Below, one piece after another: positions 1 through 60,558 of a DNA stretch of 64,000 bases; within the stretch, counting starts at the first letter, position 1, and the number at the start of each line of letters is the position of its first letter. The stretch spans positions 442,742,001 through 442,806,000 of the forward strand of contig CM097882.1 in NCBI GenBank assembly GCA_044892505.1, in the 5' to 3' direction. Both the position numbers and the translations under genes were made by a program. The notes beneath the pieces are model-generated. The model saw nothing but the letters and a program-made list of their open reading frames with translations, had not been told where the DNA came from and searched no databases. The stretch comes from Schmidtea nova. Lineage: Eukaryota.

Positions 1-10
1 GTTTGAGCGC

Positions 11-520: not shown

Positions 521-575
521 ACAATGGGACAATCATTGCCTAATCTTAATTTAAACTTTAAATCTTCTTGTTGTA

Positions 576-4214: not shown

Positions 4215-4279
4215 GCTCAAACATCACTGGTTTGAACTCTTATAGTAAAAATGAACCAAATCACTATAGTAAAATTATC

Positions 4280-4662: not shown

Positions 4663-4694
4663 ACAATTTAATAAAAATAAAATTTAGTATAAAA

Positions 4695-26095: not shown

Positions 26096-26099
26096 ACTT

Positions 26100-29000: not shown

Positions 29001-29630
29001 CATTTAGTTTGTTACTGGGTAGTGCAGCTATGATTTTGGAGCACAGAGTTTTTGTGGATTTTATACCTGAAAGGGTTAGTGTTAATTTGGCAAATTCCAG
29101 CCATTTTTGTGGAGTGCCATTTTCGTCAGTGAAGTAGTTTGGTAGGTTGGGTTTCGGGTTAATTACAGAGTTTATGGTGTGTGTGTTTTCGGGGTTGTAA
29201 TAGTAGTTGTTGTTTTGGTGTTGGGATTGTGCATTTTCGTTGTCAATGGGTGTTTGGGTAATATTTGTTTGGTTTAGTTGGTTGGTTGCCATCGCTTTTA
29301 TTTATGTGTTGCTTGTTGATGCGAAAAAAATCGAGTTTGTTTCAAGGATATGGCTTACTGTGTTCAGCCAAAAGATCTCACCTTCCTTTATAGTTCTATA
29401 CTAACTATTCTAAAAGGAAAAGGTGATTTGAGAAAAATTTCGTCGAGTGTGTGTGTGTGTGTGTTGACTTCTGACACCAGTTGTAAATGCGATATTTACT
29501 TGTTTCGAATGGCTTTAGAGTAAGATATTACGGATATGTACAAGGAGAAATGTAAGCGCCCGAGAGAGTCAGCCCGATTATTGTGGGGACACTCGGGGTG
29601 TATGCTATGTAATGCGGGAAGGAAATAACA
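26100..29630 (-). mobile_element. Decayed Ty3/gypsy retrotransposon: 5' LTR, PBS, gag, protease, RT, RNase H; integrase and 3' LTR missing
   Basis: Gag in two frames (28879-29292, 28199-28825); protease FLKDTG; RT CGDYRMLN, FSKIDLQKAYHQI, MPFGLRNA, YLDD; RNase H ATDCS, RELLAI, YTDHKPL. Several frameshifts; the sequence breaks at the start of the integrase zinc finger (KIHDISEL). Confidence 0.92.
29467..29479 (-). other. Primer-binding site TGGTGTCAGAAGT (tRNA-Leu type)
   Basis: Lies 2 nt downstream of a TGTTATTT...TTTACA LTR candidate (29482-29630). The sequence matches the recalled tRNA-Leu 3' end complement TGGTGTCAGAAGTGGGAT over 13 nt. Confidence 0.7.
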
Positions 29631-30619: not shown

Positions 30620-33600
30620 ATAGATTTCCTGATACCCAGCTGTACATATCTGCAGGTCCCGTTGCAATTTCAAAGCTCGTTCTAAATCGGGATCTTGAGT
30701 GAGAAAATGTTGTTCCATATTAGTAGCAAATTACAAGCCCTCGTGAATCAAAGCAGCTGTAAGTGGATTAATTTTGCCTGTATCTTCATTTTTGTCATTA
30801 GAATCATTACTACTACCGCAATTTGTTATAAACTCGATTAGTTCCTCATCATCTAAAGGTTTTTCAACCAATAATTCATCGATATTCACACTTTTACTGT
30901 TGTCTAAGCCTTCCTTTCCAATAGCATGTAATAGTTATATTTCAGAAACTTCTAGAAATTAATGTGGTACAGAACCTTCTTTTTTAATGCATTCTGGCCA
31001 AATTGTTTTCCAACAAGCATTCGGGGTAGAAGCCTGCACTTGCTTGATGGCGGACGAAGCGTTTATAATACAATTAAAAATTGTGTAACTTTTCCATGAT
31101 TCCACGATCGTTAAGTTTTTTTCTTTTGTTGAATCCAAAATATAAAGGAATGCTTGTTTTAAGTAATACATTTTAAATGTTTCTAGTCGCTGAATTAATG
31201 AAGTTGTTTTTGGTGGTAAAAATAACAATTGAATATTTGGGTGATCTATTACAGGATGTCTGGGCGCATTATCAACAAGTAAAAGTACTTTGAATTTAAG
31301 ACATTTTTGTTCCGTATATTTCTGGACTTCAGGAACAGAATACTCGTAAAACAATTTTTTTTAAAAATCTGCTGTAATCCATGCCTTCTTGTTTGCCATC
31401 CAATGAACTGGAAGCAGTTTAATTTTGTTGCCTTTCAAAGTTCATGGTTTAAATGATCGAATGATTAACATAGGTTTCAAAAACTTATCACCAGATGCGA
31501 TGCTACACAATAAAAATGTCACCGATCTTTAGATGCTTTGAAACCGCCAGCAGTTTTTTTCTGATTTCGCCAGAAGGCAATTTTTTCTAGAATAAACCAG
31601 TTTCATCGGCATTAGATATTTGATCTGGTGTATAACCGTTGAGTTAAAATTATTTCTGACAGTTGATCAAAAAAACTCTTTACAGCATTTTCGTCTACTG
31701 ACGCTTTTGTTGAGGTTATAAATAATTATTACCAAGCAAAATTAAAATCAAACAACTTCTTTCAAATCAAAATTTGTCTGTGTGTAAATGTGTTATGATT
31801 GTAAAATGCGATGCGTGAATACTGCTCTGAGCTCGATTTACTGTATGCTCTATTTTAATTTAATAGTCGATAACAACTATAAGATTTTTAATCGCAGTGA
31901 TTTTTTGGTTTGGTTCTACTGAGGAAAACCTTAGTGTATATAGTTATTTTTTGTGGTCCTTGACTTCAAGGGGCAAGGATCATCAAACGTCAATAACATT
32001 TGTTTTTAGTAAACAATTTTTCTATTTTTAAAAGTTCAAACAACAATTACTATTTTTAAAGTCATCTTTATTCCCAGCATCCCTGAGGTTAAAAAGATAT
32101 TAATCTATATCTGGTTGATACCTATACATCATTTATAATATTAATTTTCTAATAATTTGTTTTTATCTGTCTGTTTCTTTATTTCTTTTTTTGTTTTAAT
32201 TGATGTAGAATTTTTTTAATAATCTTACCGTTACATGCTTTTGTTAATGTATCTCATTCAACATCTATAAAAATTGAATGAAACGCGATGTAAAATTATT
32301 TCACACAAGATAATTGATATCATCCAATGTATTAATAAAGTGAAGTAAATCTGTAGGTATCGAATTTTGTAAAAAGAATTGTATGAGATATGATAATTAA
32401 TGCTTAAAGAAATGAAACTATTTATAGTTAGAAAATTAAACAAATTGATGTTATTAAACCTATAAAATTTATTGTTAAATAAGAAAATGTGTTTATATCG
32501 AATATTAATATATTAAATATCAAAATTTATTATTATTAATTAATTTATTTTATTATTATTTCCTTATTATGACCACTATTATCAATTATATTTTGATTTA
32601 TAAAAAAATTATTTTTGCAATTATTATTACTATTATTATTACTATATTTATTCTTAAGTTATTATTATTCTTGTTATTATTATTACAATGCACCTGCAGG
32701 TGCTTTTGGTTTTTTCTTTTGCTCTTCACGAGCTTTCAATCAATCGCTCTTCAATCAACATACAAAACCATTATGTTATGACGCCATGTGTCTAAAAAAA
32801 TAAAATTTTTAAAAGCAATTTATTTTAGCTCCTAGAGGGCATTTTTAATTTTTAATTATTTTTAGATTATTTTTTTAATAATAATTTTTTTCCTGATGGC
32901 AGTGAATCTGTTGAAATATATTTTTTTCCTGATACTGGCAGTGGATCTGTCGAAATATAATTTAATGTTGATCTCTTAATGTCGTTTATTTATTATTATT
33001 TTGATTTTCCTTTGACTTTTACTCATAAGGGTCCCTTTAAAATTGTTATCAAAGAAAATATTTTATTGATAAAATAAAATTATTCCACAAATCACATAAA
33101 AATTATTTAAAAATGACAAAACAAAACAAAACACATAAAATAAAATTATCAATTAATCAAATAAATCATATAATTGTCCTCACATAATTGTTATCATATC
33201 AAAATAAAGTCAAATAAAATACAATCAATTAGATCAAATGAAATTCAGTTTCATATTCAATTATTTGATATTAGATTGGATTGATGATCTTTGTTGCCCT
33301 TGTTGTCTATATATATGTTTATCCTATATCTGTTAACTCCTATTTTATAATATTTCAGTTTTATTGTTTTTAATATTCTTCCATCTTCCAACACTATCTC
33401 GCCTTTTATTTTTACATTATGAAATGCATATCTTTTCAGAAAACTCGTCAGCCATTCGTCACTTGCATGAAATGTCACTTTGTTTCTTGCAAACTTTTCG
33501 ATGGCTGCTCCTAAACTAGCCAGTATATTCTAAGCGCTTTCTCATTTATATTTTTACCATCTACAGGTATTTTTTTTCTGGACTAAATCCTTGATCCAAA

Positions 33601-33930
33601 CAAGTAAAGGTTTCACCATCTTCTCCAAGATAACATTTTGACTATATGATGACTTTTTAAAACTAATTTTTGATCCAGAAATTACTGATTTTCTAATGGA
33701 ATCTTCATTTTTTTATTGTTCAATAGTTTCTTCATTCAGGCCAAAACGTTTACCCACAGATGTAGAATCTTCGCCTTTCCCAAGATGGTCCAAAATTTTC
33801 AATTTAGCACCCAAAGAAATAGCTCGTCTCTTTCGAATCGATTTTAGTCGCCATAGACATCTTATTAGACCCTTAAAATATGTTTTTAATAGAAATTGCT
33901 TATGAATATACATTTGTAAATCAGATTACA
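30620..33930 (-). pseudogene. Tigger/pogo transposase remnant split by a 1.7-kb insertion
   Basis: HTH RRAISLGAKLKIL, FHASDEWLTSFLKRY, GYTPDQISNADETGLF and LLLVDNAPRHP..LFLPPKTTSLIQ, with many stops and frameshifts. Confidence 0.85.
31708..33393. mobile_element. TG..CA LTR-like insertion inside the Tigger transposase
   Basis: Ends TGTTGAGG and TTCCAACA; flanks CTTT/CTAT are a 4-bp TSD with one mismatch. Removing it restores KIKGEI-ASVDENA. Confidence 0.6.
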
Positions 33931-34877: not shown

Positions 34878-37758
34878 TAGAGTTTCTGGTTTCCCGACTT
34901 TTTTTAATTTTCGGGATTCGGGAATTCTCATTTTTGATAAAAATATATTTCTCGAGAATCGGGATGATTTTTAAAATTCCAGAGAATTATCGGGATATCC
35001 CGAATAAAAATCCTTTTTAAAAACTACACGAAATAAGATAAATTTGAACAAATAAATGGTATTTCGGTATTGCTTTTACTGAAAACAAAATTTATACATT
35101 AAATAATTCATTAAAAATAAATAAAAAAAATATTCATACATATATAACCATATTTTTTTTTATAAATACAATTTATTGAAAAAAAATGAAAATAAAAAAT
35201 AAAGGAAGCAATAATAACATTAAAAACTACTGTCCCAACTAAGACAATAAAGGAACTAACAATTTTAATAAAACAGATATATTATTTTTCATGTTTTTGA
35301 AAATAATTTTTCAAAAAACAAAGGCAATTTAAATGTTTATCTGTCAAACGTCCTCTTAGTTTGGATGCAAAGTTATTTGAAACAGAAAAGTTTCTCTCAT
35401 TTTCTGTTGAAATAGGTTTTATAGTCATAATTGCTTCCTTTAGTTTTTTAAAATTTTTGGTTATATTTCCAGTTGCTTCATAAATACTTATTTCTTTGGA
35501 AAGTAAACGATATTCGCCATCGCTCACAATTTTGCTTGGTGCCAGTGTTTTTGAAATAGATTCTTCCAATTGCTTGCTCATATTACATATTTTTATATTA
35601 GAATTATTATTATTTTCTTTAGTAATTGTAATACAATTTTCGTCATCATTTTCTATTACCATATCCACATCTTTATCAGTGTTTTTAAACAATCGTTTTA
35701 AAATCAATTTGGCTCTCTTCATTACTTCACTTTTAGAACTCAATTTAAAAAAATTATCCTCATCCTCATGTTGATCTTCAGGAATACAGAAAGTATTATG
35801 ATCCAGTAGAAATTTAAGCAGTGATACTAACGTAACGTCTCTCCTTTTTGATATTTGTGTTTTTATTTCTTTTAAAAGAGATGAACTTATTGCAGTATTG
35901 TTATTTTTAAGAGTTGTAAATAAAAATTTCAGTACACCTTCAGCAGATAATAAATTATTATCACGACGACTGAGTGCTTCAACAGATACTCTAGCTGGTT
36001 TCAAAGCATTTAATATATCATAAGCTAGCACTTCATCAATAGTAGGATTCCATAAATGCTCTGAATTTAAATCTTTTAAAACTTTCATTATTGGACTTTT
36101 AATTCTTAAAAACCTTTCAATCATTATTTCAATTGAATTCCATCGTGTCTTCACGTCTAATATACATTGTAATTCTTGTTTCTCTTTTTCTTTTACGTAA
36201 TTTTGCAGTAAAGCATTTCTTACAGGCGAGTTTTTAAACATTTTAACGATAGTTCCTATTTTTTTATAATAGTAAATTTTAAATTAAATTTAGTAGCTGC
36301 AGTTGATCTACTATCAGTATCACCAATACCATATTGCCAGTCATCTTCATCTCCTGATGAATCGGAGCAACCACTATCACTATTTTGGACACTAGAGCTA
36401 AAACCTTTTTGATAAAATGTTGACATAACAGCTAAATGCACTGCATGATTATAACATAATTGTTGATATGCTGGTGAAAGTTTACCGAATTTTATCATCA
36501 CACTCGCACCATCACTTGTAGTAGCAACTTTATCAGTTGAAAAATTTAAACCGAATGATTTCAAATTTAAATCAACCAATTCAATGGCTTTTTCGGCAGG
36601 ATCCATCTATACGAATTAAGCCCAAATTTTCAGATTCTCCGTCATGATAATATAATTGGATATTCATATATCTACTGTTTTTGAAACTTGTCCAATCATC
36701 GATTGACTGCGAGAATTTTTTATTATTGGATTTCATCAAATTTATTTTTCAATTATATCTAACTTTTTTTCATAATATTTATATATAAAACTGGATACAT
36801 AAAACTCGATGGCTTTTAAGGTATTTCTAATAAATTCGCTTTTTGTAATAGCATTAATTGAAAACCCGTCTTGGGCAGCAAGTTTTGAAACGACATATTC
36901 AATATTGTGTTTTTTGTTTACAGTAAAATATGTTTCTAATGCTTGTTTTTTATTTGATTCAAAATTCGGTTTTTTTGTTTCCTCCAATCTACGTTTCATC
37001 CGATGCTCCCCTCCACCCAAATGCCTATGTAATCCACTAGTTGACGACGCTTTGCATCCTATTGCTTTAATACAAAATTTACAAGTAGCTGTATCGCTAT
37101 TATCAGTTCTTTTGAAATAATTCCATATATTTTTACTTAAATATTCGTTTTCATTCTGTATAATCTAGAAGGTATTTAAAAATAAAGTACAAAATAGATT
37201 TTTTTAATATTTTAACAATACTAACTTCATTTCCATCCATATATAATTATTTCATTATGTTATAATAATTTTATATTGAAATGTATAGACTGGATCGATG
37301 ATTATATTTTTATAATATTTTAATCGAATTGAAATCAGTTTTTCAGCCACAATAATTTAATAATATTCTAGAAACAAATATAAATTCAATGTATACGAAA
37401 ATCAAAATGGAACACAAAATATATTACTTGCAAATAAATTGTAGTTTTTTCTGAAATTAGCACAATGACAATTAACAACTTACAATTTTTTGTTATATAT
37501 TACTTTTTCCCAGCTGAAATTTAAGTTTGACAGAAAGTCAAATAAAATGCGACTCGAAAATCCAAAAGTTAAGTTGAATTATTTCCAAACAATTTTTACA
37601 GCGGTTGCTTAAATTTCGATTTTTGAATACGAAATATATTTCTTTCCCGAGAAAAATAATATTTCCCGAAATATAGTTTAAAAAAAATCTCGGGAAAAGG
37701 GAAAAACAAATAAATTAGTTTTCTCGAAAATTCCCGAGAGAGAATTCTTGAGACTGCA
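34878..37758 (-). mobile_element. Decayed hAT transposon with BED-finger transposase (about 35282-37150, frameshifted)
   Basis: BED finger IWNYF..ATCKFC..STSGLHRHL; also LCYNHAVHLAV, LDVKTRWNS and ISTENERNFS. Imperfect ends with TTCCCG/CGGGAA subterminal repeats; no TSD, so the boundaries are approximate. Confidence 0.8.
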
Positions 37759-37903
37759 CTTACATTGGAGGAAACTGATTGTAATTGTTTATTCCTTATA
37801 TTAATTTCAGTAAGTACTTCGTGTTAAATTACAATTCCACAAAAATATTCAAAAGAGCTCAATTTTGTAGCGATTGATTGAGCAGATATTTTAGTTAGTT
37901 AGG

Positions 37904-38715
37904 TGTTTGTGATGTTTAGCCGGTGCTCTTAGTCTGACTCCTCGGTGTTCTTTAAATTTGATTCAAGGAAATAACCCAACACAGAAGAAGTTATTTGCAA
38001 CTATCACAATTTTTTAACACACCAAGTCTGTTCAAAATTTTACAATAACTTTTATGGACTGCTTCTCCGACTTCGCGTAGGGATAAGTCCCCCAAACGAA
38101 GATCTTCCTTTCTGGTACGCTTGAAGAATGAATTTGGCTTTGAACTTTTTAATTATCGCTCTTAACTCTTTACGGATTCTCTCGTTCTGACTTCACTTAC
38201 TTTTTGCTTCGGCCATTCTGGCAAAATTTAATGTTTCTCTTTCCCTTTTATACTGCGTCTGTTGATGGGTTTCCCACTCCGCTGCAGCTGTCTAATGGTA
38301 GTTTCCGATTTGACATTTTAATTTTCTATCTGTCGGTTACGCTCTCCGGGTCTCCTCTAAAGTTAATTTTCTCAGGAATTATTACCTGTCATATTGCTTG
38401 TCCGGGTTTCCCACACTCTTCGGGTTCTCCATTGTCTCGTGTTTTCCATTAGCTCGGGCTTTCCATTAGCCAATTTACTCTTAATTAATATTTTAATAAT
38501 TTCTTGCTGGGTATCCCCCATTCACTTTATTTTATTATTTTTGGATTCGTTCCAATATTCGGCATCCACCCATTCCAATTTCCCCCGCTAATTCTTTGTT
38601 TTCGAATTTTTCCTAAATTTTAATTAATTTTGAAAATTTTATACTTTATTGATTTTTACTAAGTTTTTATGATTTTTTGTTTTTGTATTTTACTAATTTT
38701 TACTAAACCCCAACA
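37904..38715 (-). repeat. LTR of the TGTTGGGG family, reverse orientation
   Basis: Reverse complement starts TGTTGGGGTTTAG and ends ATCACAAACA, and shares internal blocks with 12597-13359. Confidence 0.7.
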
Positions 38716-39381: not shown

Positions 39382-41352
39382 CGGAGCGGGACATTTCAGT
39401 CTCGCCGTTTCAGTCCTGGTCAAATCAGTCCCGTCTGCTTCAATCCCAACCAATGCAAATAAATTACTTCAAATAACATTTAATGACATAAAAAACAGTC
39501 AGAGGTTATACATGTTGATAAAAACTCTCAAAGACATCTACATAAAAACTCTCAAAGTATTAGCATAAAAAATCAATGCAAATAGATAACTTTTAATAAC
39601 ATTTAATTACATAATAACATTTAATGACATAATATGACATATATGTTGATAAAAACTCTCAAATACATCTAGATGAAAACTTTCAAAGTTATTGCATAAT
39701 GAAATTGTGCGCCAATCCTCGAAGATACTCTACGATGTCACGTTTGTTGTAGGTGGACACTAAGTTGTAAATTCTATCATCAGCTTGTATGTACTTGCGT
39801 CTCTTTGCCGGTGCTGGAGTGCCTGCCACATACGCCTCGTAGACGACATCTCGCCCCTTCTGGACGCATCGTAGCCCATCAATAAAGCGCCAAATTGAGG
39901 GATGAGAAATGTCGAGCTCCGTCTGAAGTCTTCGATGTGCAGCCTCCGCGTGAATGTTTGTGCGGTCCTGGTTATTTAGAACGCGATCATAGACATTCCA
40001 CAATGGGGGCGGAAAGGAAGGAGCACGTCGTATGCGATTGCGTCCAAAGCGTCTACCAAGGTAACTATCTTCGAGCCAATTGAGGATGGGCTGTAGTTCA
40101 TCATGAAGTTCTTCTGTGAGTGTATCGAAAGCGACATCTAGGTTGACGATGGGAACGAATGCGATAGCAATGATCATCCGGGCCTGCAGTGAAAACATCG
40201 TATCATTATCGTAACAATTAAGCAAACCTGCAGCACGTAAATGTACTCTAAAGTTCTTCATTAAGTGGAACAGGCATCCTCGGAGAACAGCTGAAGGGAA
40301 ATTAGCACGGACTGCGTTTTTAACAGCCATTTCTAAGTCAAGTGAGATGAACGACGGATTGAATTGAGGCCAGAGTTCTTTAATGATTCTGAACAACCTA
40401 TCGTATGTAACTTGCTGCTTGTTCCCAAGGAGGGCATACAGCACAGGGAAGACATATCTACCACATTTAGCCAACACCACGAAGACCTGCTCAAAGAGTG
40501 GTGGAGCTAAACTGAACGTGCCGTCTATGAACACTTCATCCATCTGCTGACTCCAGCGTATATGGCTTTCACGTCCAAATAGAATTATTCGGTTAACATC
40601 ATCCTGTTCTGTGTTACCTAGTACAAAGCGTTCCTGCTCTCCTGGAACTGACTCGTACATTCGATATTCATCGGGAATTATTAGTTGGGTTAAGTTTGTT
40701 GGATTTGCTGGAGCCATGGCCAATCGATTTCTGATCCTTTGAATAACCTTCCTGTTTGCATCTTTATTTGGCATCTGACCCATCGTTGCTAGATCGATGC
40801 CCTGGATGACATGGTTTATGATTTGTGCAGGTTGTTCTATTGTTTCATCGGCTCGCCTCTTTATCGATGTTTTAACTTTAACCACCTCAACTCGAGCAGC
40901 ATTGCTTCCGTGACTGTGACTCCCACTTCTATTGACTATGGCATCGTTAAAATCAGTGTGAATCCGGGCTTTGCATTGTCCCTGATTATCGCATCTCCAG
41001 AACTTCCTTTCTCCGTTTGCGCTCATTTTGCAGAAACTGAAAGGATGCCCTTCATCTGCCAACTTTTTACGTCCTCGTTGAGACTTCAAATCATCAGTCA
41101 TGACGGTTAGTTTAGTTAAAATTTAACGTTTTGCGAATTAATAAATGTCCTAATTCCTAATATTTACTAATACTAATGTTTTTGTTTACATTTGTCTAAG
41201 CGTGTTTTCGTTTTCTTTTCGTCACAATGTTTCATCCAAAATTATGCCTTAGGACTTAGGACTTAAACGGTCAGTATTGAAACAGTCGAGACTGATTTGA
41301 CGAGGACTAAATCGGCGGGACTAAAACGGCGGGACTGAATAGTCACGGACCG
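39382..41352 (-). mobile_element. Complete Mutator-like (MULE) transposon, 1971 bp
   Basis: Imperfect TIRs CGGAGCGGGAC.. / ..GTCACGGACCG with TCAGTCCCG-type repeats, and a perfect 9-bp TSD CAGAAGAGC (39373-39381 and 41353-41361). Confidence 0.93.
39689..41101 (-). CDS. FLYWCH-MULE DDE transposase, intact, 470 aa
   Basis: FLYWCH (FWRCD..CKARIHT..HSH), FIDGTF (D), SLDLE (D), CLFH, RTNIHAE (E). Confidence 0.92.
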   Translation of the reverse strand: MTDDLKSQRGRKKLADEGHPFSFCKMSANGERKFWRCDNQGQCKARIHTDFNDAIVNRSGSHSHGSNAARVEVVKVKTSIKRRADETIEQPAQIINHVIQGIDLATMGQMPNKDANRKVIQRIRNRLAMAPANPTNLTQLIIPDEYRMYESVPGEQERFVLGNTEQDDVNRIILFGRESHIRWSQQMDEVFIDGTFSLAPPLFEQVFVVLAKCGRYVFPVLYALLGNKQQVTYDRLFRIIKELWPQFNPSFISLDLEMAVKNAVRANFPSAVLRGCLFHLMKNFRVHLRAAGLLNCYDNDTMFSLQARMIIAIAFVPIVNLDVAFDTLTEELHDELQPILNWLEDSYLGRRFGRNRIRRAPSFPPPLWNVYDRVLNNQDRTNIHAEAAHRRLQTELDISHPSIWRFIDGLRCVQKGRDVVYEAYVAGTPAPAKRRKYIQADDRIYNLVSTYNKRDIVEYLRGLAHNFIMQ

Positions 41353-43266
41353 CAGAAGAGCTGTGCGGCCACGACTACTCTTCTCTAAATTCTATTTAAT
41401 GGTTTCTCTCGTGTCGATAGAAGACACTTAATGTTCTGACCATACGTCTTACTGGTCACAAATTTCGACGATTTAGTAGCTGTTTTACTTTAAAATAATT
41501 CAGATAAAAATTACGAAACTTGAGTATCTAAACACTAAAGTTGACAAAATATTTGCTTCGGCTCTGTATAAATATTTTATTCAAACTAAAAAAAACTCGA
41601 AAAATTATAATTCTGAGTAATTCATAAAATATTTCTGAATGCTAAAATTTTGTGGAACCTTTATAATATTAACACGGAGCTATAGGGCTCCGTTGAGCAC
41701 ACATTGAAAATCATTGGCCTAAATAATCGAATCGATTTGTTAATGAAATTGGTTCAGCATCGATGTCATTTGTCTTGCAATATTCATTTTTGGAATTTTG
41801 TTGAACTTTGTTGAAATTATCATCGATGTTTTCTTCGTGTTAAAAATTAACTACATTCAGCGCTTGGAAGTAATATTTTGTCGACTGGAGCAAACTTTTT
41901 AAAAAGGCACCTTTTATGGTCAAGAAGTTTAAAAACACACATTTTAAAGGGATAATATATATTATATATATTTTCAATTTATTTATAATTATGTACATAA
42001 AATAAAATTTTAATTTTGGACCTTAATTTCCGCAAAATCGTTTATTAAAGCGTTATAAAAGACTCAACAATGGTGCCTTCAATGGAAATCAATGATAAAC
42101 TCATTAATATTCCTTGTCCCATTGATGATCTTAAATAATTTTTAATTATTTTCAATATAAAAAAACTGTATTCCACAGAAGCTACCAATACAGGTAAAGT
42201 TAGAAAAATCTTTTAAAAAATGCCTAAATTTGGAATTATTGTAATTATATTGTTCTTGCCTAAATAATTAAAAATTTATATTGGATACATTTTAGATGAG
42301 AATAAGGAAGTAAAATTTATTATTTTTTCACAAATTTCAATACCATCAGTTAATATTAACTTGAAATCCTTACAATATTATAATATTTACAATTTATCTT
42401 TATATTTTAAATATTATATATAAATTCGTAATATTTAGTATGTTTTCCATTTGTTCAAATCTTCGTTGATTGATGTAATAGTAGTGTCAAAAATGAAATT
42501 AAAAATATTATTTTATAGTTATAGTGCGGATCTAAAATGGGATAATCTGCAGATTTGTATTTAAATTGTCTATTTTTAAGACTTATTCCAACAGTTTGAA
42601 TATCTTGAAAATGTCCTTCAATTTACATAGTTTCAGCTATTCTTTTTGATTCATCAACGTACTGTTGTTGGTTTCGGATTGGGTTAAAACAAAAATAGTA
42701 AATTAAACTAATAATTATTTTTAAACGCTCTAGGGATTCCTCCATCCAAAACCTCACATAAAATGCTTACCTATCACACGAGCACCCTCGATCATTTCCC
42801 TGTAATAATCGAGTTGGAAATGTGCAAGGTGTTTGAACAATGATGGGCAGGTGAGCTCTATTGCTAAAACTACTCCCCATTTATGTTCACGGGTTCGTCT
42901 CGCTGCCGATAGAAGGACTTACGCTTTAACTTTAATCTATCCGCATCCATTATCTTTCCTCTCCATGTTTCTTTAGCCCCCTTCTTTACAATATATTTCA
43001 ACTTTCAACTTCTCTTTCAGCCCCCTTCTTTACAATATCAACAAATAATCCTTAATCAATTACAATTTATTATCTCTTTAATGTTTCTATTGTTTATTAG
43101 ATTTATGTTAATCTTATTGTTAATTCTAATGTATAGTTAATTTATTCTATATTTTCCTTTAAATTATTTTAAATTTTCAATAAATCACATTATTTTCTAT
43201 ACTCTACCATAAAATAAATACAAACAAAAATTATTTAATAAGCAAAATAACTAAATCACAGAAGTT

Positions 43267-43857
43267 CTATTCAAAGTATTTGGTAATGTCTTCATCCGAT
43301 ATTGCAAAGTTCATTGTTAGATCAATCTCGGGAATTTCTTTTGATTGTTGAGCCAATTGCTGGAGCACTTGCTTCTTCCAGCGACGCTGACGTGCGCCCA
43401 TCTTACTCTTCTTTTTCTTCTTGACTTCTGGATTGGTCGTGTTCTTTGGTATACTGGCTGCTATTGTTGCTTGAACCTGAGAGGTTTCCTCGGTGTTCGT
43501 TCCCTTCGTGCATCCTGCTTTCTCGTCAGCCCAATGCTGATAAGTGATTGGTCGAATGAGCTGACTGAGCTCTTGAGTTAAATACGACGCCGTTACAGAT
43601 TTCAGACATTTCTTTAATTCCATCTTCGTCGCGTCCAATTCCATTTGGATCTCTTCGTTTGCTCGCTGTGAGCGTTGATTTTTTACAATTTGGGTTTTCA
43701 TCTGCTCTGGACTGAACCAGCTTTTCTTCAGGTTGGAGATTATGCCATCGGCTTCTTTTATTTTTTCCGATTTCCGTAACATTTCTTTGTCCAGGCTGCG
43801 AATTATCCTCCATGCTTTATCTAATTCGGCTTGATTAGTTGCTGTGTTGGCTGACAT
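43267..43857 (-). CDS. Orphan coiled-coil protein with a basic NLS-like tract, 196 aa
   Basis: ATG-started ORF that is less AT-rich than its flanks, with heptad-like N-terminal half and KKKKKSKMGARQRRWKK. No family recognised. Confidence 0.55.
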   Translation of the reverse strand: MSANTATNQAELDKAWRIIRSLDKEMLRKSEKIKEADGIISNLKKSWFSPEQMKTQIVKNQRSQRANEEIQMELDATKMELKKCLKSVTASYLTQELSQLIRPITYQHWADEKAGCTKGTNTEETSQVQATIAASIPKNTTNPEVKKKKKSKMGARQRRWKKQVLQQLAQQSKEIPEIDLTMNFAISDEDITKYFE

Positions 43858-43985
43858 GTTCTAAAATTCAAAATGGTTTATTAACATGAAATTGGCAGTC
43901 TTGATTTGAACGATTCTCATACTTTTGACAATCATTAATTGCGAATTCAGGAAGAGAAAATGATTTACCTATTACACTTTCAACA

Positions 43986-44123
43986 CTGTCGCTATGTACA
44001 GCGATCAGATACATTTATTTCATAATGCATTTTATTTAGTTACGCCTGTGCTATATACAGCAATCAGGATAAGAAAATTATAAGAATAAACTAAGGTCCA
44101 CTGCCCTATGTACAGGGTTCAGG
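43986..44123. repeat. Three spaced hairpins with loop AT(G/A)TAC
   Basis: Stems TCGCT/AGCGA, TGCT/AGCA and CCCT/AGGG, each inside an outer CTG/CAG pair. Confidence 0.75.
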
Positions 44124-44584
44124 ATAAGCAATTATATTTAATTATTTATGTGGAATGTTTGAACCTATAGCCTATTGCTGCTATGTTACTTGCGTAGTAG
44201 ATCACTACGTTATTAGAGTTATCGATTTTTATGTTGTTATTAAAATTATACTTTGTACAAATTCTTAACCGTGTATCTGCCGCTCTATGCCCACAAACCC
44301 CAGATGTGACAATCGAAAAATATACGCTAACACTCTGTGAATCTCAAGGTAAAATCAGGTTAATAAAATCGCAATTATATCCGTCTCAAACTAAAATCAA
44401 AACTCAACTTAACTATAAACTCAAAAATTTTAAATCGATTATAAAATAAAACTTCAACTGGCTATACTATCCAGTGAAAAATAAGGTTAGAAATCAAAAA
44501 TAAAATTCCTACCCTCGTCACGGCGCTTTACACCGGTCGGACGGCCTAACTGTACGGAGCAGTCGTTTCTACTCGGCACAGTAT

Positions 44585-44873
44585 GCCTCCATTTCACCGA
44601 TTGCACGGTGATCGGAGCCCCTTAAATCATACGTAATTTTCTACTATAACTACGGTATATAAATAATATATATTCGCCTCCTTCCACTGATTTCACAGTG
44701 GAAGAAGCTCGACTCAAAAATTTATTCATAAAAATATACTTCAACCTAATTGTTAATATCACAACATAATGTTGCCTCCTTCCACCGATTACACGATGGA
44801 AGAAGCTCAATAAAAGATATATAATAGATATATAAAGTCGTCTCCTACCATTGATTGCACAGTGGAAGAAGCT
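44585..44873. repeat. Four spaced 34-nt hairpin repeats (CCTCCTTCCAC(C/T)G-ATT(G/T/A)CA-C(A/G)GTGGAAGAAGCT type)
   Basis: Copies at 44585, 44676, 44774 and 44840, separated by unrelated AT-rich spacers. Confidence 0.75.
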
Positions 44874-47800
44874 TGATTTAATTCTATATTCAAAAGAATG
44901 CAACATATTCAGAAAAGGTTTATTAATTTCATAATTACAATTATAATGGCTAATGACAGAATTTCATCATAAAATTACAAAAAATAAAAATATAATAAAC
45001 AATAACCCATACCTTTGGTTTTCTCACTGAGTCAAAAGTGATATCAAAATTGAATACTTTCAACACTTAAGTAAAAAATCATTAAAACATCTGAATCTGG
45101 ATCAGTATTTATACTGACCAGATCAGTTCATTGACCAATCAGCATCAATCTGATGGTCCTCAATGCAATTCTATTAAAAATAAAATCAATTTTATTAACA
45201 AATATGATTTTCATTTTCTTGTTTTAATTTACCGATTTTTTATTAATTCTTCTTCTTTTTTACTTATTTATTTCGCTTTCTTATTATTTAAATATAATTA
45301 AATATCATTTTTCTTTAACACTTTTACATTTTCCATTTACTTTCTTCCAATTTTTGATATTAAATTAATATTCTTTATTACATTTTAATTCGTTTTTTCT
45401 GAAATTCTGGTAATTATTTTAATTTTAATTTATTCTTATTTATTTCTTATTATTCCTATTATTTATGTTACATGTGGACTAAATGGTGGATCCAACAGTA
45501 CAATAAATTTTCATTTGATCAATAACCACTTAAAAAATATAAAACTTCTTTTGCATGCTAAAATCTATTACATGTAAATTCAATATTATTATTTGCATAA
45601 TTCAATTATTGTTTCTTAAATCATTTTTAAAATTTGCACAAAAAATCACGGTGTATAAGGTGTAATAACCAAATTTTTTGTTTTTCTGTGCGCCTAATAG
45701 CCCGAAAAATACAGTACTATTTTTCTACTGACCTTCAATTGGTCCATTTAAACAACGAATATTTTTTTAATTTGTTAAAATTAATTTCTATATTCTTTTG
45801 GTTATTTTATAAATTTGTACAAATAATTTTTATTATTTTTAATTCATTTCCTAATCGTTTTAATAAAAATATAGATAATATAATTGAAATATTTTCTCAT
45901 TAATTCTATTTTAAATTGTAATATTATATTAAAACCTACTTTTTAAGTTAATTCTAAATGATATGCTTAATTTTATTTTATGCTTTTCGAATTACTTGGT
46001 TATTTCTCTATTGTTTCAATGATAATAAAAGGCTAATTACATCGTTACACAGCAAACATAATCTATACTTTCATCAATCATTCAGAGAATATGGATGATT
46101 TTTTTTCGTTTTAAACTACACTTTAAATAACTAGATGAATCTTCTGTATTATTTTTTACATATTTTAATTATACACTCTTAAAAGGAATATCATGATTCT
46201 ACTAAATATTGTTTTATAAAATGCAAATACCCAAATATCTATTTTGTTAATAACACTGGTGATCTTTGGCACTGAATATTAAATTATAAGGTTTATTTCA
46301 CGAATAAGATTATAATTCTTAACATACGAATACGGATGAAGTACTAATATTAAAGATTAGGTTTCATTGTTATCCTATTTTTCTTTTTACAATCGCAATA
46401 AGGAAAAAGTAATGCATAGAAGTTTGATATTTACAATTCTAATTTATATTCTTATTGATTTTTATAATAAAAAGAGTTATACGATTCTTACACTATTTTG
46501 TCTTGATCGAATGTAAAAATTAAGTTAAATGTATTCTGAAACTAATTAGCACAAATCGCATATAAAATATATCAAAAGACTGCAATCACATTATTCACTG
46601 GCCTACAATAGTTGTCTATTACTACAGATCAAGGCCTAGTAGCAGTAAAGCTAAATATCGATTTCTCTTATTTATGATGACGGTGTCACGCTTAGCTGAA
46701 CTGATAAGTTTATTCAATTTGGTGGGTTGTTAGTAAAAAACACATTTTTTACATTTTTTACTAGAGTCCTAGTAGACAGGTGAGTCTTTTTGCCACGACT
46801 TTGTTTCGGCTGCAGTCAGATAGAAATTTTCTATCTTACTGCGTAGATTTCTTGTTATCTATCTGAGTGTGTGTTAGATGGTTATTTCTTTACTTTTTCT
46901 AGCGTCTGTGTGCGCTCTTTTCTTATTCGTAGTTTCGTGTCTGCGTGCAAGCTTTATTGTGGTTTTTATGAAAAGAATTGTAGTTTAGTTTTTTTTGGAG
47001 GTAATTATAAGTTTGTTTAATAGAATTAATTGTTTATTGTATGTTAATAAATTAAAAATCATATTTTGATTAAATTGAATTTGAAACGAAATTGTGAAAT
47101 TTTTAATTATTTCAAATTGTTTATTCGAATCAATTTGGTTTTAATTTTATTTTGGAAAATTTTATTTTCATTAAATTATATGTGATTTTTCTTGATTTGA
47201 ATTAAATTTGAATGATTTTTTAAACTGTATACAAGAAGAATTTAGATATTGAAATAAAGTTATTATTAAATTAATATCTTAGTCTTATTTTTCTGAATGC
47301 TCAAATTGTTGAACAGACTGAGTTCAATTGAGTTTTTGTATAAATATTGCAGTAACGTAGCACGTAAGAACGCGCACGAAGTGAACTTAAATTGAAAAAT
47401 AAGAAATGCCAAATGAACAGAATTAATCAAAGAACCCCTAACATTTTATTAAAGACGTTTACAAGTTAAACTGAAACCTAATAGCACGAAAAAAACACAA
47501 CTATTACATAAAAACATTTAATTACAGCAATTAACTGCAAATGAGAAAAATTTCGAACATTCAATTAATAAATTATTTAATTTTTATAAAATTTTTATAG
47601 TCCTGGATTCTAGCTGTTTCCCTTATACATACACGTCAAAAATGTCCCTCATAATAGACTTAATGTCTCAGATTGCACCGCAGAAAATGACGAGTCTACT
47701 TGAAATGACCTTTAAATTTGATCTCAAAATAAGATATGATTGTGTAATCACTTTCGATATAGGAAAAACGGTCATTATACAAATCAGTTTATGCTACGTG

Positions 47801-50087
47801 AAACTCGGTAATTACTCAATATATACAATGGATGCCCGGTGATGAATTTGCAATGTTGGAATCTGACAAAATATATTTTGCATTGACATTTTGTGGATTT
47901 CGCTTTGGACCAATTTTTCATAATCTGTTATACCAAATTCACAAACCGTAACTGTAGAATTCTATCTCTTATTATATCTTCAGCTTTGATAACACGGCTT
48001 GTTGCGTCGAGAATATTATTATTACATGTGACCGTCACTGAAAATTTTCGTACTTACCCATTTTGAATGCAACCATTCTTTTTTGAAGTATTCAGAAAAC
48101 CAAAATAACAGCAACTGATAACAGATTTTTTAATAAAAGAAAGTCAACAACATAGGATGTTAAAAGAGAACGAGAGTCTTACTTGGATTCAAACTCATTT
48201 TGCTCATTTCTAGCTCACTTTGCTTTCAATTTTTCCGTTAATAATAACTGTGAACACTATTATCAAGTAGCGATGAAGAGGTATTAAATAAGATTTTTTT
48301 TTGAATTTGAAAATTTCTCGTGAATAGAAATTTGTGTGTAACTTTTTATTCTAGGCTCTATCTTTTACACCATCCCACCTGAACATTTACATGACTTTCC
48401 TCGCGCGTAAACCCGTAATAATTCTCGGGTGATTGCGTTGAAAATGCATATCGCAGGTCGACCATCAATAGGCAGGTGAACCCAGTCACCAAGACTACTC
48501 CCCATGGAACTTTTCATTTGGGGTTCATATTGGTTGATAGAAGACCTGCTTTTTCCTGTAATTACACATTTGCCAACAGCACTCTTTACTTTTCTGGTAA
48601 ATTATGGTTTCTTCCTGAACTTTGATATGTATCCATTACTCAGCTTCGCCAATTTCAGGGATGAGATAAAAATTTCTTATAAAAAAATTTCAGATCCATA
48701 AAAAACAATTGATCTAACACAAAAGGCAAATTATACATGCACTTTGACATTAATTATAAAACAATGATTTCATTAGGAACTTCGAGTTCAGACAGCCCAT
48801 ATAGATAACCTACTTGGTTTGCTGGTAGACTTAAACTTTTCTTCTCGTTGCTTTCGTCACTGTTTGGGACTAGGTCTTAAGTAGTTAGATGTGAGCCCGC
48901 AGGAACAAAGACAATACGAGACAACAAAAGCTGAGTCATAACACGAGTCATACTCTTTGAAAACAAAGGCAATGAGTTATTGCATATTTTGTTAGACCAC
49001 TCCTTCATGGTCAAAATGACCGCCAAACAGACAAAGCCTTAAAAATCTTTTCTCTTTGTGCTACATCACAGAAATTTATATGTATCCATGCAAAATAAAG
49101 AGGAACAAAATAATATACTGGTAATTTCTGTATAACTTATCATTTTCATTCTATTCACAAGCTAAGTTGATGAAATGATAAATAATTGAACCAACCAAGG
49201 TATTTAATTCAAAAACAAGGTTTTCTTCTTAATATATTTATTTACAATATACATTATATTTTTCTCTAATAAAAACATTACAAATTTGACAAAATGAACT
49301 TTGCCACATATTCTACAGCGAATAATATGTCTGCAAGGAAGATATAACATTTCAATCTTTGTTGATTGATATCTGCAACATGTAAACATTATAATTTGCC
49401 GCCTTGATATTTCTTCAACTTTTTTTTATTAATATTTGCACAATTTTGCAATGAAAATTTAAAATTTCCTAGTCTAGTGAATTATATAATTTCCATATAT
49501 CCGTTAATAACTCATCTTCATTCAATATTTTGTCAGTTATATAAGCAATAATTCATCATTTCCCTTTTGAACCCACATTTCTTAATGAATCCCTTCTTTA
49601 CTTAAGCGACAGAATAAATTGTTAAAATTGGATTTGTTCAATTTTTCAAAGTTTTCCATTACAAATATAATACATTTAAAGAACTAATTTCAGTGGAATA
49701 TTGTTTAAATAAATTATTTGAATTCCTAATCAATGCCAAAGGTATATTGCTAATTTTATCATCGGTATCATTATTGATTTCATGAACTGGTGCAGCATTC
49801 GAAGTAGTAAAAGATGAGATACTGGTTCACAGTCATCATTACCAGATTTATTAAGCTGTTCGAATTGTACAGGGTCATGTTCGGATTCATCATCACATTG
49901 AGAAAGTTCATTGATGATAGACTCTAAGTCTTCGGTTAAATGTTAAAATTCATCAAGTAAATATTTTATTATACAACCTATCAAAAATTAAATATTAAAT
50001 TACAGTATAAATATTTTACTTTTATTAAATGCCATTTTTCACAAATAAAATACGTTTTTTAATTGTTAATAGTAAAATATTATAAAA

Positions 50088-54590: not shown

Positions 54591-55734
54591 AATCGCGAAA
54601 CTCTAATTTATTTATAAAATATAAGTCGGTAAAAATAAAGAAAAAACATTTTTTAATTTGGAAACTATTGGTTTGGAATTAAATAAAGCTGGGTGGGCTG
54701 GCCTGTAAATTATTTAAACAAGCGATTAAAATTTAATTTAGAAATTACAGAGTTTCTGTGTTGGATAGATTAAGATTTTCCTAAGTTAATAAAAATTATA
54801 AGATTTTAAAAGCTATGTATTTAACAGCGAATAAATTTTTTTCAAAATTTTTAGGATCAACTTACTTTTAAGTTCAACGCATCGACCTAAAAAATATTTA
54901 TAAATTGTCATATTAAAAATATTAAAAACCTTATCAGCCAATTCATCCAATTTCTTTTCTGAATTCTAATTTATTTAATAAATTAATATATTATAAAAAA
55001 ATTTTAACTTTTGTTTCTAAATAAACTAAACTTGGTTTAAAAGGTCTGAAAATTATTTAACAAATAAATAAAAATTAATTTTGAAATTACATATTTTCTT
55101 TGTTGGAGTGATTCGGATTATCCTAAAAACAATAATATTTAAATAGAATGGTATATTTAGCAACGAATAATATATTTCAAAAAATTTTAGAATGAATTTA
55201 CTTCTGAATTCCAAGCGTTGACCTTAAAAAATATTTATAAATTTTAATAAAATACTAAAATAACAAAAACCCGAGCAGCTAATTCAGCTAATCTCTGCTT
55301 AGCCTTAAGCGTGATTTTAGAATTGTTATTTGCATATACAATATTATTGGTGTCTAAGTTTTCATTTAACATATTTATTTATTTTTCAAACTTTAATAAA
55401 GATTTAAAATTTTGAAAATGGGAAATTAAAACAAATAAAAATTGCATTAAAACACGTTTTTTGCAAAAAATCAGCTTAGAAATCAATTTTTTACTTTGTA
55501 AAATTTTTAATACCTTTGATTTTAGGGACAAAAAATAATAAAGAAAAACTCGAATTTTACATTTAATTACATTTTAAAATTGGTTAAAAATATAATTGAC
55601 TTGTAATATTTGAAAACAATAAACAAAAAAAGGCTTATATTACATTCGTTACAGTAATATTTAATTTTTTTCTTTTTTTCTCATCTTATTTTGAGGAACA
55701 AACTTGTTGGTATTCGGGTTGTTGGAAATTTTTG

Positions 55735-56070
55735 TTCAGTGTCTAGGGCGCTAATTATGAGTACCGACATAAATTAATTTCCTCGATCGTATACCCATGA
55801 GTTCCCTAGACTCGACTCATGTTGGTGATGCATACGTCGTCGTAGATCGAATTGGTAGGTGAACGGTTCTGAGAACAACTACTTCTGATTTATAACTACT
55901 GTGGGTTCACTGACCGATAGGTCGCTCCTCTCTTTACTACTTCGTAGGTCACTCAATAAAGGTTTAAGTATTTGTTATCTATGTCGGACAACGAAAACAT
56001 AAATTAACAGCTCAAAACATTTATTAACACTACAGATCTCTTATTTCGTTAATCAACTCCAGTTCGGAAA
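55735..56070. repeat. Dispersed repeat, homologous to 59475-59810
   Basis: Shared blocks GTGTCTAGGG, ATGAGTTCC(C)TAGAC, GACTCATGTTGGTGATG, CTCTCTTTACTAC, TAGGTCACTCA, TATCTATGTCGGA(A)CAACGAAAACAT. Confidence 0.75.
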
Positions 56071-57689
56071 GGCCAGGGCCCCTTTGGATTTGCTCGGCCT
56101 TATGTAGTTGGCTCCGCATTTGTTCGGGCGAGAAGTAGTTTTGCATCATCTCATCTATTTCCATTTGTTGTCGCGCTATTCTTCATTTAATTCATCAAAT
56201 TCTCGGCTTCTCGCACTTAATCAGCTCGGCCCTTTGGATGCTTAATCGGGTTTCATGTTCTATGCTAAAACAACATTTGAATATTTTATGCTAATGATAT
56301 ATCCAAGTTTGTTAATAACAATTTTTATGAATTTTCTAAATTACTAAATTATCACACCCTGGAGCGATAACACATGAGTTTATTTATCTATTTTTTCATC
56401 TGAAAAGGTATTTAAGTTAACTCACAAAACAAATAAATCAAAAATTAATACAATAACTGAGGATACTACGTACACATTTATTATGGTAAGAAACACAAAA
56501 TCATAGTCCATTAATGCTCAAAATTTTCCATGACATGCTACATTTCTAATCGATGCTCAGGATAGACCTGAAGTAGAATACATCTTGAATTTATATTGTG
56601 GATCTCCACGAAGGAAGCTTTGGTATTGCCTCATTTCTTTGAACTTCTCTCTGAACTCTGGAGCAGTATGGGTGAGGTGGGACCAGTCCGTCAAATTCCC
56701 ATTTGGGGATATACCTTGCATAGATAATCTTCCGTGGATGGCCTTTCTCATCTTTAAGCACCACAAACCAGGTTGCGTAAATTTCTAAAGATTCCTGGTC
56801 TATCGTAACAGGCCAATTGGGGCCTCCTCTGTACCATATCTCTTTTGAGGATTTGTGGCCCAAGTCACGAATGGGCATTTCTTTCGGAACTGTGCCATTT
56901 ACGCATAGTTGCATTTACTGCACTGAGAATTGGAGTTATTTATATGGTATATAAATTTTTTATTTATATGGTCTTATAAAATTTGGTATATAAATTTATG
57001 AATAATTTGTTTTTTATTATATAGGGTAGATTGTTGTTTAAGAAAATTCTAGAGCCTAGCCGAGTCTCCTGCAAAAAAGGTATCGGGATAGCTGGAGTGC
57101 GTGTTGTATATGTGGGTGAATGTTTGGTGTATTTGGTCTAACAACGTATTAAAACCTAACAAAATAAAATATCAAATATTAATTTCAATATATATCTTTC
57201 TAGTAACCAAACGAATGCAAAAAATAATTACCACAATCACTGGGGATGGGTATAATGAACTAACTATAGCGAATTAGAATTTTATATTCGAAACTCTATT
57301 TATTTGTTATTTATTTTTAAATTGACTCTTCTCTTTAGATTTTTTCTTTAGTTCAAAATGATTGATTCTTTCCTTTAGATATTTTCTTTAGTTCAAAATT
57401 GTTTTTCCCAAATAGTTCCCTTAGTTTTAATTTGTCAAGATTTTCTATTGTTTTCTTAATTTGTCCAGGTTTTCTTTTATAATTAATTTGTCAAAGTTTA
57501 CTTTAGTTTTTTTAATTGTCATGGTTTTATCTCGTTATTAATCTGTTATAACTAACGTGCCAAAATAAAAATGATAAAAAATGGGAGGTTACCAGTGTCC
57601 GACATGACTCTTATGATAATGATAATAATAATAAAAATAATAATAGTAACAACAATATTAAAAATACAGCTTTAACACTGAGGATCTGT

Positions 57690-58560: not shown

Positions 58561-59474
58561 TGAATATAATGAAGTATTATACATGAACTGTATAATTGAT
58601 TTATTTATTTAATTTTTGTGATTAGTTATCACTACATTTTCTTTTATACATTAAAACAAGAAAAAACGAAAACATATAAAATACAGTAACTACAAGAGTT
58701 AGTTACAGGAAGAACTCACCACTGTCTTTGTATGCATGGTCATGCCTCGCTCTTTCGTAGTTAATAATTTATTGACTTTCCGAGTACATGGGTTCTGGAG
58801 ATTTTGAAAATTTAATATTTTTAAAATGACATGGCAGTATTTGACCCATCGATTTAATAATGGTCCTGTTATTAATTCATCCTTTTACCGACTGGTTGTT
58901 GTTAATTTATGCCGGATGTTTGTGTTATGATAGAATTTCGCTTTATTTTAGATAGTCAAACAAACTTTGATTAAACTGGTAATACATGCAATGATATCCA
59001 GTATTAGGCCTCGCGCATTGTGGTATAGTGTTCGTTTCGCTGTTGATAGCATTATATGATGGATTTATTATATACCTTCGTTAATTGAGGGGAACTATGT
59101 CACGTTTAACATGTAATTAATCAATAGAGTTTCTAACATGAACTACCACTATACTTGGAGTATTCAACAAAAAATGTATGTGGAGTTACCTATTAAATCT
59201 TTGGAAAGTATTCCTTGTATGAAATGATCAAGGTTGGATATTCTTTTCGGTGTAAACGTTCCCTATCGAAAATTCATCTTTAGAGTGAAATATCTCCGTA
59301 TTAGCATTATTCTAATATGAAACATCATCCCAAGGGTAACTGGATCGAAAATGGTTCATCAATCACACAAAAATAAACTAATTGAACTACTTGTGGTGTA
59401 AAAAGATTTCATATTATGAATTTTTTTATATGCATTTGTTGGTATTCGGTATTGTTGGTTGAAAATCTTTGATC

Positions 59475-59810
59475 GGTGTCTAGGGTCATTGTTGTGAATA
59501 CTTACATAAAATGTATTCCCTTGATCCTATACCTATGAGTTCCTAGACATGACTCATGTTGGTGATGTATACCTCTTAGATCAAATCGACAGATGAGTGG
59601 TTCTGGGAACGATTAATCCCGATTTATACCTATTGCGGGTTCTCTGGCCGATAGGAGGTCCCTACTCTCTTTACTACCTTATAGGTCACTCATTGAGATC
59701 TATATACTCTATATCTATGTCGGAACAACGAAAACATTAATTTACGGTTCGAAAAATTTATTTACATTACAGGGTAATAATCTCGTTAATCGATCTTACT
59801 TCGGAGAGGT
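59475..59810. repeat. Second copy of the 55735-56070 repeat
   Basis: Same shared blocks as the 55735-56070 copy. Confidence 0.75.
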
Positions 59811-59860: not shown

Positions 59861-60558
59861 TGTTGGTGACGTAGTGCACCAATAATATTCTTTCCAAACC
59901 GATGGGGGTCCACAGAAAATAATTAAAAAATTAAAATGTTAATTAAGAATTAATTGGCTAATGGAATGCCCGAACTAACGTAAAACCCGAGCCAATGGAT
60001 AACCCGAGTGATGAGGAAAACCCGAGGTGACAAGTTAATTGCCTTGAAAATTAATGTTCCAGACAGAAAGCAAATGGCAATTAGCATCTTAATTGCCTCA
60101 GAATGTAAATTGGAATTTCGAGATTAAAAAAATTGACGGTTTAGTGGTCTTTACCGGGAAATTTACCATTTTAACGTAAGGAAACAAATAAATCAACTCT
60201 CAAAATTTTATATAAAAAGAGAGGCGAAATCAGCAGAAACGCCAATACAGTTGAAGAAAAGAAAAGTATCGCTATCGAAATAAATAAAGGAATCGTGAAA
60301 AGTAAAAGATAAAAGAAGTCTGTCATAATCAAATTTAAATCCATTTGTTAGCACGCGCACCAGAAAGGGACATCTGCCGTTGGGAGACATATCCCTGCGC
60401 GTTTGCGAAAAGTCTGAAAAGCAGTTAAATAATTTGTAAAGACAATTGTGTATTAGATTGATTATTAATAAAGGTTATTGTATAGGGTCTTGTTAATTGA
60501 TTTTAATAAGAACACTGGAGTCAGATAAAGACCCACTTAACCAAATAAATACCCAACA
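59861..60558 (+). repeat. LTR of the TGTTGG..CCCAACA family
   Basis: Starts TGTTGGTG and ends ACCCAACA; has AACCCGAG repeats and AATAAAGG. Confidence 0.65.

Follow-up and report, generated by a model that had tools for sequence, protein, structure and literature searches.

The window analyzed here, a 64,000-nt stretch of Schmidtea nova DNA, is AT-rich animal sequence full of mobile elements, including Maverick/Polinton, gypsy RT, MULE and hAT pieces. A Maverick/Polinton accounts for 1-10662 and 63054-64000, with a piece of a chromodomain integrase, a piece of a double-jelly-roll capsid protein and a polymerase-like ORF of 1315 aa; another pPolB fragment, near the window's other edge, is 70% identical. 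At 39394-41326 lies an FLYWCH-MULE transposon, which has terminal inverted repeats (TIRs) of 51 bp and an ORF of 470 aa that is still intact, and broken gypsy gag-pol, hAT-like and pogo/Tigger-like remnants occupy the minus strand at 25600-29300, 35282-37164, 60760-61860 and 30962-33925, the hAT-like transposase and the pogo/Tigger-like remnants of this set being named from their motifs. Members of a 0.76-kb LTR family (12597-13359, about 37900-38715 on the minus strand, and 59905-60026) carry 17-nt tandem repeats, a TATA box and AATAAA, and a 13-nt tandem array of 12.8 copies at 18576-18741 contains TGAGTCA, an AP-1-like site. The one clear host gene, an intronless monocarboxylate-transporter (SLC16) gene, is encoded at 21754-23244 on the minus strand. 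Among named matches covering more than 90%, the best is slc16a-16 of Schmidtea mediterranea (43% identity); some unnamed proteins are more similar (80%), and by E-value an oyster protein is placed above it. By this gene, a triclad flatworm is the probable host.

Among these elements lies an array of four related palindromic units, described here as they fold on the minus strand: A1 (44585-44618, 34 nt), with an internal loop and a UGCAAU terminal loop; A2 (44676-44708, 33 nt), a 12-bp stem with one G.U pair and a UGAAAU loop; A3 (44774-44806, 33 nt), a 12-bp stem with two G.U pairs and a UGUAAU loop; and A4 (44840-44872, 33 nt), the weakest and partly decayed in this copy. Three mutually unrelated AT-rich linkers separate them (44619-44675, 44709-44773 and 44807-44839), so that the spacer lengths are 57, 65 and 33 nt. 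The four units recognized by the first-pass annotation are real, as are the 9-bp plus-strand stem (present in unit 2), the 6-nt ATT(G/T/A)CA loop, the CCG/CGG versus CTG/CAG stem change and the 57-nt spacer that it described; its uniform unit length of 34 nt holds for A1 alone, and its other two spacers, put at about 64 and 32 nt, measure one nucleotide more. The longer minus-strand stems (up to 12 bp with G.U pairs), the weakness of unit 4 and the enclosing mobile element were absent from that description.

The units (48-59% GC) stand out from the spacers (15-23% GC). All six unit-to-unit alignments scored above every shuffle, whereas the spacer-to-spacer alignments were comparable to shuffles (p 0.71, 0.086 and 0.12), which bears out the initial claim that the spacers are mutually dissimilar and does not reveal them as decayed copies of one tandem unit. 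A degenerate unit pattern, allowing at most three mismatches, matched three of the four units and nothing in any of 100 shuffles. The same pattern had 0 loci in viral contigs, and its two metagenome loci were dismissed as chance matches of 22-24 nt with flanks devoid of similarity.

The array is enclosed by a dispersed repeat of 2,835 bp (42663-45497; probable sense strand, minus), delimited by its TGTTG...CAACA ends, a target site duplication (TSD), raised read depth and junction contigs. The TSD, GTAC, is found at 42659-42662 and 45498-45501. Depth and contigs over 41400-47400 were taken from four public runs, all of one study; no RNA run was among those listed for the stretch, which has no bearing on expression. 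At the left edge, the alignment of hAT-family contigs breaks off at 42657 in three of the four runs; on the right, a unique contig free of differences begins at 45468, the earliest 31-mer to contain base 45498, and the repeat hence ends at 45497. GTAC also follows another candidate right end, 45713, but single-copy depth beyond 45498 rules it out. Among the 1041 TGTTG/CAACA end pairs of the window, 9 are flanked by a 4-5 bp duplication, the element's own pair included. The inverted match of the ends is limited to 5 bp (TGTTG/CAACA), inverted alignment of the element ends being not significant for a longer TIR, and the window holds no second copy of the 2,835-bp element. Single ORF positions reach a depth of 513-2474, compared with about 10 for single-copy contigs in the four runs, and depth inside the element is about 100 times the single-copy level, although read depth here is no copy number; the hairpin clusters and a block at 42807-43007 are deeper still than the ORF positions. 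On the basis of this depth, which does not count copies, we take the element to be a dispersed family with on the order of a hundred members.

The left flank (42060-42658, minus strand) is a decayed ZMYM1-like hAT transposase, recognized by a Dimer_Tnp_hAT domain, by homologues and by tblastn (E 5.6e-24), and not, as also considered, an endogenous bunyavirus-like polymerase. The transposase is interrupted at the left edge of the element. Two observations count against the proposed insertion: the tblastn alignment of the transposase enters the left end by 5 bases, and the right flank had no tblastn match to three hAT proteins, so that the flanks do not rebuild an empty site. The two flanks show no similarity to each other.

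Other copies of the array shed light on its linkers. Among 12 of the 36 contig rows, contigs connect one unit with another by AT-rich stretches of 5-35 nt whose letters differ from those here, and some of the joining contigs step back in the array. The different letters between units indicate that linkers drift, and the number or order of units probably differs among copies. The comparison of copies proposed by the first-pass annotation returned different AT-rich letters between the units; one of these linkers looks by eye like spacer 3, which suggests that it was inherited and not acquired. Within A4, the present copy has one position at which all covering contigs of the four runs carry another letter, the other copies keeping the base pair there (among 40 of the 657 variants), and in one loose-end unit both arms are altered with pairing retained.

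Several features suggest an orientation for the element. Three AATAAA hexamers follow the ORF described below at 43061-43146 (minus strand), the one nearest to the LTR end being the putative polyadenylation signal. The last AATAAA on the minus strand lies 404 nt from the element end, and the corresponding distances are 315 and 321 nt in two relatives, against a hexamer background of 2.9 per kb. The LTR of another family at 12597-13359, located behind a purine tract, begins with TGTTGG and an A-rich stretch, as does the minus strand of the element. From the AATAAA positions and this resemblance to a neighboring LTR, the minus strand is probably the sense strand. Read in this direction, the element comprises an A-rich start, two weak palindromes, A4 to A1, two GC-rich hairpins and three further hairpins, B1-B3, followed by a splice-acceptor-like TTTTAG, a 196-aa ORF, AATAAA and a conserved terminal block with a donor-like AG|GTAAG. 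The TTTTAG (43861-43866, minus strand), found by motif scan, ends three bases before the ATG, and its use as an acceptor is inferred. The conserved block (42663-43010, minus strand), a putative U5, is the deepest region of the element, with the donor-like motif at about 42772. A protein-coding reading of it was rejected, as Pfam gave no family and the sole Atlas lead, to Not1 (0.84), was of low recognition. The window contains three diverged relatives of this block, at 48325-48616 (nhmmer E 2.3e-7), about 55705-56075 and about 59437-59810, the latter two (starting near 55704 and 59436) scoring 72 and 90 versus shuffle maxima of 61 and 57. The element also contains a 44-nt tandem duplication (42972-43038), within which lie two purine-tract-like AAAGAAGGGGG runs on the minus strand. 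Elsewhere, at 55705-57160, a terminal-block relative is succeeded by minus-strand ORF pieces (56560-56914) without a Pfam match, possibly a second long gene-bearing LTR.

To assess the hairpins as structures, both strands were folded. All four array units fold more stably on the minus strand, where the loop reads UGNAAU: A1 at -15.5 kcal/mol (z -3.43) compared with -13.6 kcal/mol (z -3.58) on the plus strand, A2 at -19.7 (z -6.23) compared with -14.5, A3 at -18.6 (z -6.16) compared with -9.3, and A4 at -8.9 (z -1.67) compared with -7.6. Folding of the 411-nt array region gave z -6.57 on the minus versus -3.42 on the plus strand, and sliding-window z values were mixed by strand (at A3, plus -4.8 versus minus -4.2). 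The minus-strand advantage is not clean, since a G-rich strand gains G.U pairs for free. Both sides change at 4 of the 13 pairs of the array stems, a covariation score equalled in 3 of 500 shuffles; this is suggestive only, because there are just four related units and unit 1 alone supplies three of the four covarying pairs. Furthermore, the CCG/CGG to CTG/CAG change can come from two CpG-type transitions.

The array is not the only structured cluster in the element. Directly downstream of A1 on the minus strand, a GC-rich block with two further hairpins (44518-44584) is among the deepest bins, and its part at 44547-44584 folds at -17.4 on the minus versus -10.9 on the plus strand. Family B (43985-44131, minus strand) is made up of the three hairpins B1-B3, which are bulged, have a UACA/UAUA loop, follow one another at intervals of about 55-59 nt and likewise fall in deep bins; both sides change in two of five pairs of its stems. 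Cluster C (45087-45150) comprises two weaker palindromes with a window z of about -3 on both strands and coincides with a depth peak at 45018-45218. When the window was searched with covariance models for families A and B, no extra copy emerged (the next matches had E 0.86 and 0.41, respectively). The consensus of the conserved terminal block folds better on the plus strand (-8.99 versus -2.55 on the minus), which does not fit neatly with minus as the sense strand. Searches for known structured RNAs returned no Rfam family (best E 0.28, far below gathering scores) and no tRNA (ARAGORN). Helitron 3' ends, hammerhead and HDV ribozymes, sbRNA, IRE and HSE, judged by their motifs, were unsupported, and a bacterial promoter scan stayed at chance level.

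The element encodes an orphan ORF of 196 aa (43267-43857, minus strand), with an N-terminal coiled coil, a Lys/Arg-rich stretch at residues ~146-162, an NES-like match at 175-184 and a SIM-like match at 178-181. The ORF would stay open by chance with a probability of 7e-6. No homologue was found among 367 word-index candidates or 1.84 billion representatives, the best Atlas score was 0.87, and Foldseek detected no fold likeness at E<=0.001. A PC-Esterase match (E 0.0026) was below the cut-off and disregarded, and the Foldseek match to SIV Rev (rank 30, E 3.3) is likewise noise. AlphaFold2, run without an alignment, predicted helices at 4-45 and 50-100, a disordered linker and a C-terminal helix that overlaps the end of the Lys/Arg-rich stretch (pTM 0.24); that stretch has more Lys than Arg. 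Residues 1-105 were predicted to form a parallel homodimer (0.54 versus 0.02 for the best control), with contact agreement between runs of at least 97% and pLDDT of at least 85. In calibration, 21 of 30 microbial and 7 of 16 animal homodimers attained the homodimer mark, as did 0 of 23 monomers. This prediction supports, but does not show, self-association of the protein as a coiled-coil dimer; the pass may reflect likeness, because coiled-coil dimers are a common solved shape. The NES-like and SIM-like patterns gave one match each, and both motifs are short and common. At 62383-62798 (minus strand), frameshifted frames include a coiled-coil-like part, an Arg-rich motif and PxIDL, with a spacing like that of the 196-aa C-terminus; the basic look-alike motif at 62386-62631 was rejected as a relative of the ORF (BLASTP E 0.48, not significant).

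Taken together, we lean, slightly beyond even chances, toward reading the array as repeated cis-acting RNA stem-loops in a long solo LTR of a gypsy-type (Metaviridae) retrotransposon. The parts of this reading carry different weight: that the element is a solo LTR is very likely, that its hairpins serve as a cis element at the RNA level is fairly likely, and that the element's own protein binds them is unlikely. The multicopy element, its ends and TSD, the conserved paired stems and the variable linkers are established. The sense strand, splicing and action of the stems at the RNA level are what we infer from these. A full-length copy with a primer-binding site, polypurine tract and gag-pol was not seen, and the case for LTR identity and strand is consequently built from the ends, the TSD and analogy. 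In sequence, these ends are similar to the Metaviridae short inverted repeat consensus, TGTTRNR...YNYAACA, as given in the excerpted text of PMC3601003, and 4-bp TSDs are described for a group of animal non-autonomous LTR elements (PMC10886601).

A mechanism can be outlined for the RNA-level reading. On the minus strand, the hairpins would lie within U3 (or a very long R), upstream of the acceptor, the 196-aa ORF and the polyadenylation signal. A donor in the 5' LTR may join the acceptor in the 3' LTR, yielding a spliced mRNA for the ORF from which the hairpins are removed. They would be retained at the 3' end of the full-length RNA and so could mark unspliced genomic RNA only. Each hairpin would provide one docking site, and their repetition would permit multivalent protein binding, the bound protein routing genomic RNA to export or packaging. 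Candidate binders are a host or Gag factor, by analogy with a CTE or psi, or the element's own coiled-coil basic protein, by analogy with Rev or Rec. In its most specific and rather doubtful form, the proposal is that an invertebrate gypsy-type element independently evolved a Rev/Rec-RcRE-like circuit wholly within its LTR, from modular hairpins. A donor close to the LTR's 3' terminus together with the acceptor before the ATG would then give rise to a dimeric basic protein with an export signal, which could bind the hairpins of unspliced genomic RNA and export or package that RNA.

The same solo LTR could instead carry its units as palindromic duplex-DNA enhancer sites in U3, bound by a dimeric transcription factor, possibly the element's own protein. 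Units of 33-34 bp whose two arms flank an asymmetric core of 6 bp have dimensions fitting for the binding of a dimer, the predicted parallel coiled coil with a basic region would suit a DNA-binding dimer, the spacers contain TATA-like hexamers on both strands, and, according to excerpts of PMC3601003, U3 tandem repeats are common and can regulate transcription. However, in families A and B arm letters change while pairing stays, and the imperfections of the palindromes are mostly G.U pairs on the minus strand. Kept pairing and G.U departures are expected of a single-strand fold, not of sequence-specific duplex binding, and the HSE pattern is absent from the sequence. We consider the duplex reading unlikely.

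The element may alternatively be a non-autonomous Ginger-like DNA transposon with a cargo ORF, whose palindromes would serve its transposase as sites in subterminal or internal position. A Ginger-type element would be compatible with the 4-bp TSD, and no internal retroelement genes were seen. Ginger TIRs begin with TGTNR in the excerpted text of PMC3601003. This origin is nevertheless improbable: the inverted match is only 5 bp with no longer TIR found, the arrays are internal and confined to one side, and the position of the putative polyadenylation signal is conserved among related ends. Moreover, Pfam revealed no transposase family in the ORF or in the other frames of the element.

If the transcript started in the LTR and R were very long, the hairpins might sit in a 5' leader and exert TAR-like or autoregulatory control over how the ORF is elongated or translated. 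Such an arrangement is in keeping with the AATAAA that follows the ORF and with the presence, upstream of the array on the minus strand, of a CCAAT-like box and of palindromes at about 45090-45150. However, an R of about 2 kb far exceeds the retroviral range of 11-150 nt (excerpt of PMC3601003), and the acceptor immediately before the ATG would excise the leader, making this possibility distinctly improbable. As for a CRISPR-like or hr-like system that stores foreign sequences or yields guide RNAs, an analogy raised by the first-pass annotation, the layout of similar palindromic repeats with dissimilar spacers and the differing letters between units in other copies speak for it, but as a mechanism it is not supported and is very improbable indeed: the 33-65-nt spacers are AT-rich and unequal, the search against viruses proposed at the outset gave no exact match in viral contigs and only phage matches at E=0.4, Rfam has no family for the units, the array sits inside an LTR-ended element, and 18 of the 21 ORFs of at least 150 aa, scanned with Pfam, hold no baculovirus gene and no cas family, the latter as first reported.

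Thus, the array is explained as part of a retrotransposon end and not as a eukaryotic CRISPR. The locus is still unusual in combining a 2.8-kb LTR with an intact orphan gene and several conserved hairpin clusters. How unspliced RNA of invertebrate LTR retrotransposons leaves the nucleus and is chosen for packaging is poorly understood. A hairpin of 33 nt and a protein of 196 aa open this question to direct testing in vitro.

How does the element compare with known systems? Layout aside, likeness to CRISPR arrays and baculovirus hr is confined to palindromic repeats of about 30 nt parted by other sequence; unlike in those systems, the AT-rich spacers of the array vary in length and show no foreign origin, neither cas nor baculovirus genes accompany it, and its context is a retrotransposon. 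The palindromes of a baculovirus hr are set in direct repeats of greater length, and the genome around them is that of a baculovirus. The literature consulted contained no hairpin arrays or ORFs inside planarian LTRs, and the original planarian genome paper, its supplements and Repbase may contain the family. The element is closer to Ty3/gypsy solo LTRs, including those of the giant planarian Burro elements, with which, in the excerpts of PMC3601003 and PMC6431247, it shares short inverted TG...CA ends, a 4-bp TSD, AATAAA near the 3' end, high copy number and a planarian host. Unlike ordinary Ty3/gypsy solo LTRs, it extends over 2.8 kb and harbors an ORF that is intact as well as hairpins in three clusters. 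Accessory ORFs are known in Burro-like elements, whose likeness to the present one is by description (excerpt of PMC6431247), and planarian gypsy giants with accessory ORFs have been reported (excerpts of PMC6431247, PMC8532177 and PMC11410931). Flatworm LTRs are described as carrying HSEs in the excerpted part of PMC12801592, whereas the present element has none.

Additional ORFs of LTR retrotransposons elsewhere provide a parallel for the 196-aa ORF. Like it, they encode orphan accessory proteins, some nuclear or coiled-coil (excerpts of PMC7264820 and PMC5408684); examples are sORF1/sORF2 of the Drosophila MDG1 group (excerpt of bioRxiv 10.1101/2025.03.14.642691), the ORF3s of rotifers (excerpt of PMC5408684) and plant aORFs, for which a Rev-like role has been speculated (excerpt of PMC7264820). 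In these excerpts, the plant, Drosophila and rotifer ORFs lie in the internal region with no cognate hairpin array described, whereas the 196-aa ORF lies in the LTR.

For the RNA itself, there are two kinds of counterpart. Constitutive transport elements (CTEs), such as the MPMV CTE and SERV-K/MER11, are, like the array, cis RNA structures near the 3' end of genomic RNA in the excerpt of PMC11379458. As excerpted, they would act without an element-encoded partner, and the likeness is one that we propose for the array; unlike CTEs, the array has no Rfam or sequence match, an invertebrate host and short repeated hairpins. The HERV-K RcRE is, like the array, a structured RNA in the U3 of an LTR, but it forms one branched fold, whereas the array consists of repeated separate hairpins (excerpt of PMC11379458). 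Its partner Rec is encoded in env in the same partial text, and the 196-aa ORF is encoded inside the LTR.

Rev-like proteins are known from three vertebrate retrovirus genera, being listed for lenti-, delta- and betaretroviruses, and share coiled coils, as stated in the excerpts of PMC5568270 and PMC10746203. In these partial descriptions they resemble the 196-aa protein in being small, with a predicted coiled coil, a basic motif and an NES-like match, and in probably arising from spliced RNA; no homology or fold likeness of the ORF to Rev, Rec, Rem or Rex was found, and we do not claim that the protein belongs to the Rev-like class. If the circuit is real, Rev-type control would be a case of convergent evolution, outside the vertebrate retroviruses.
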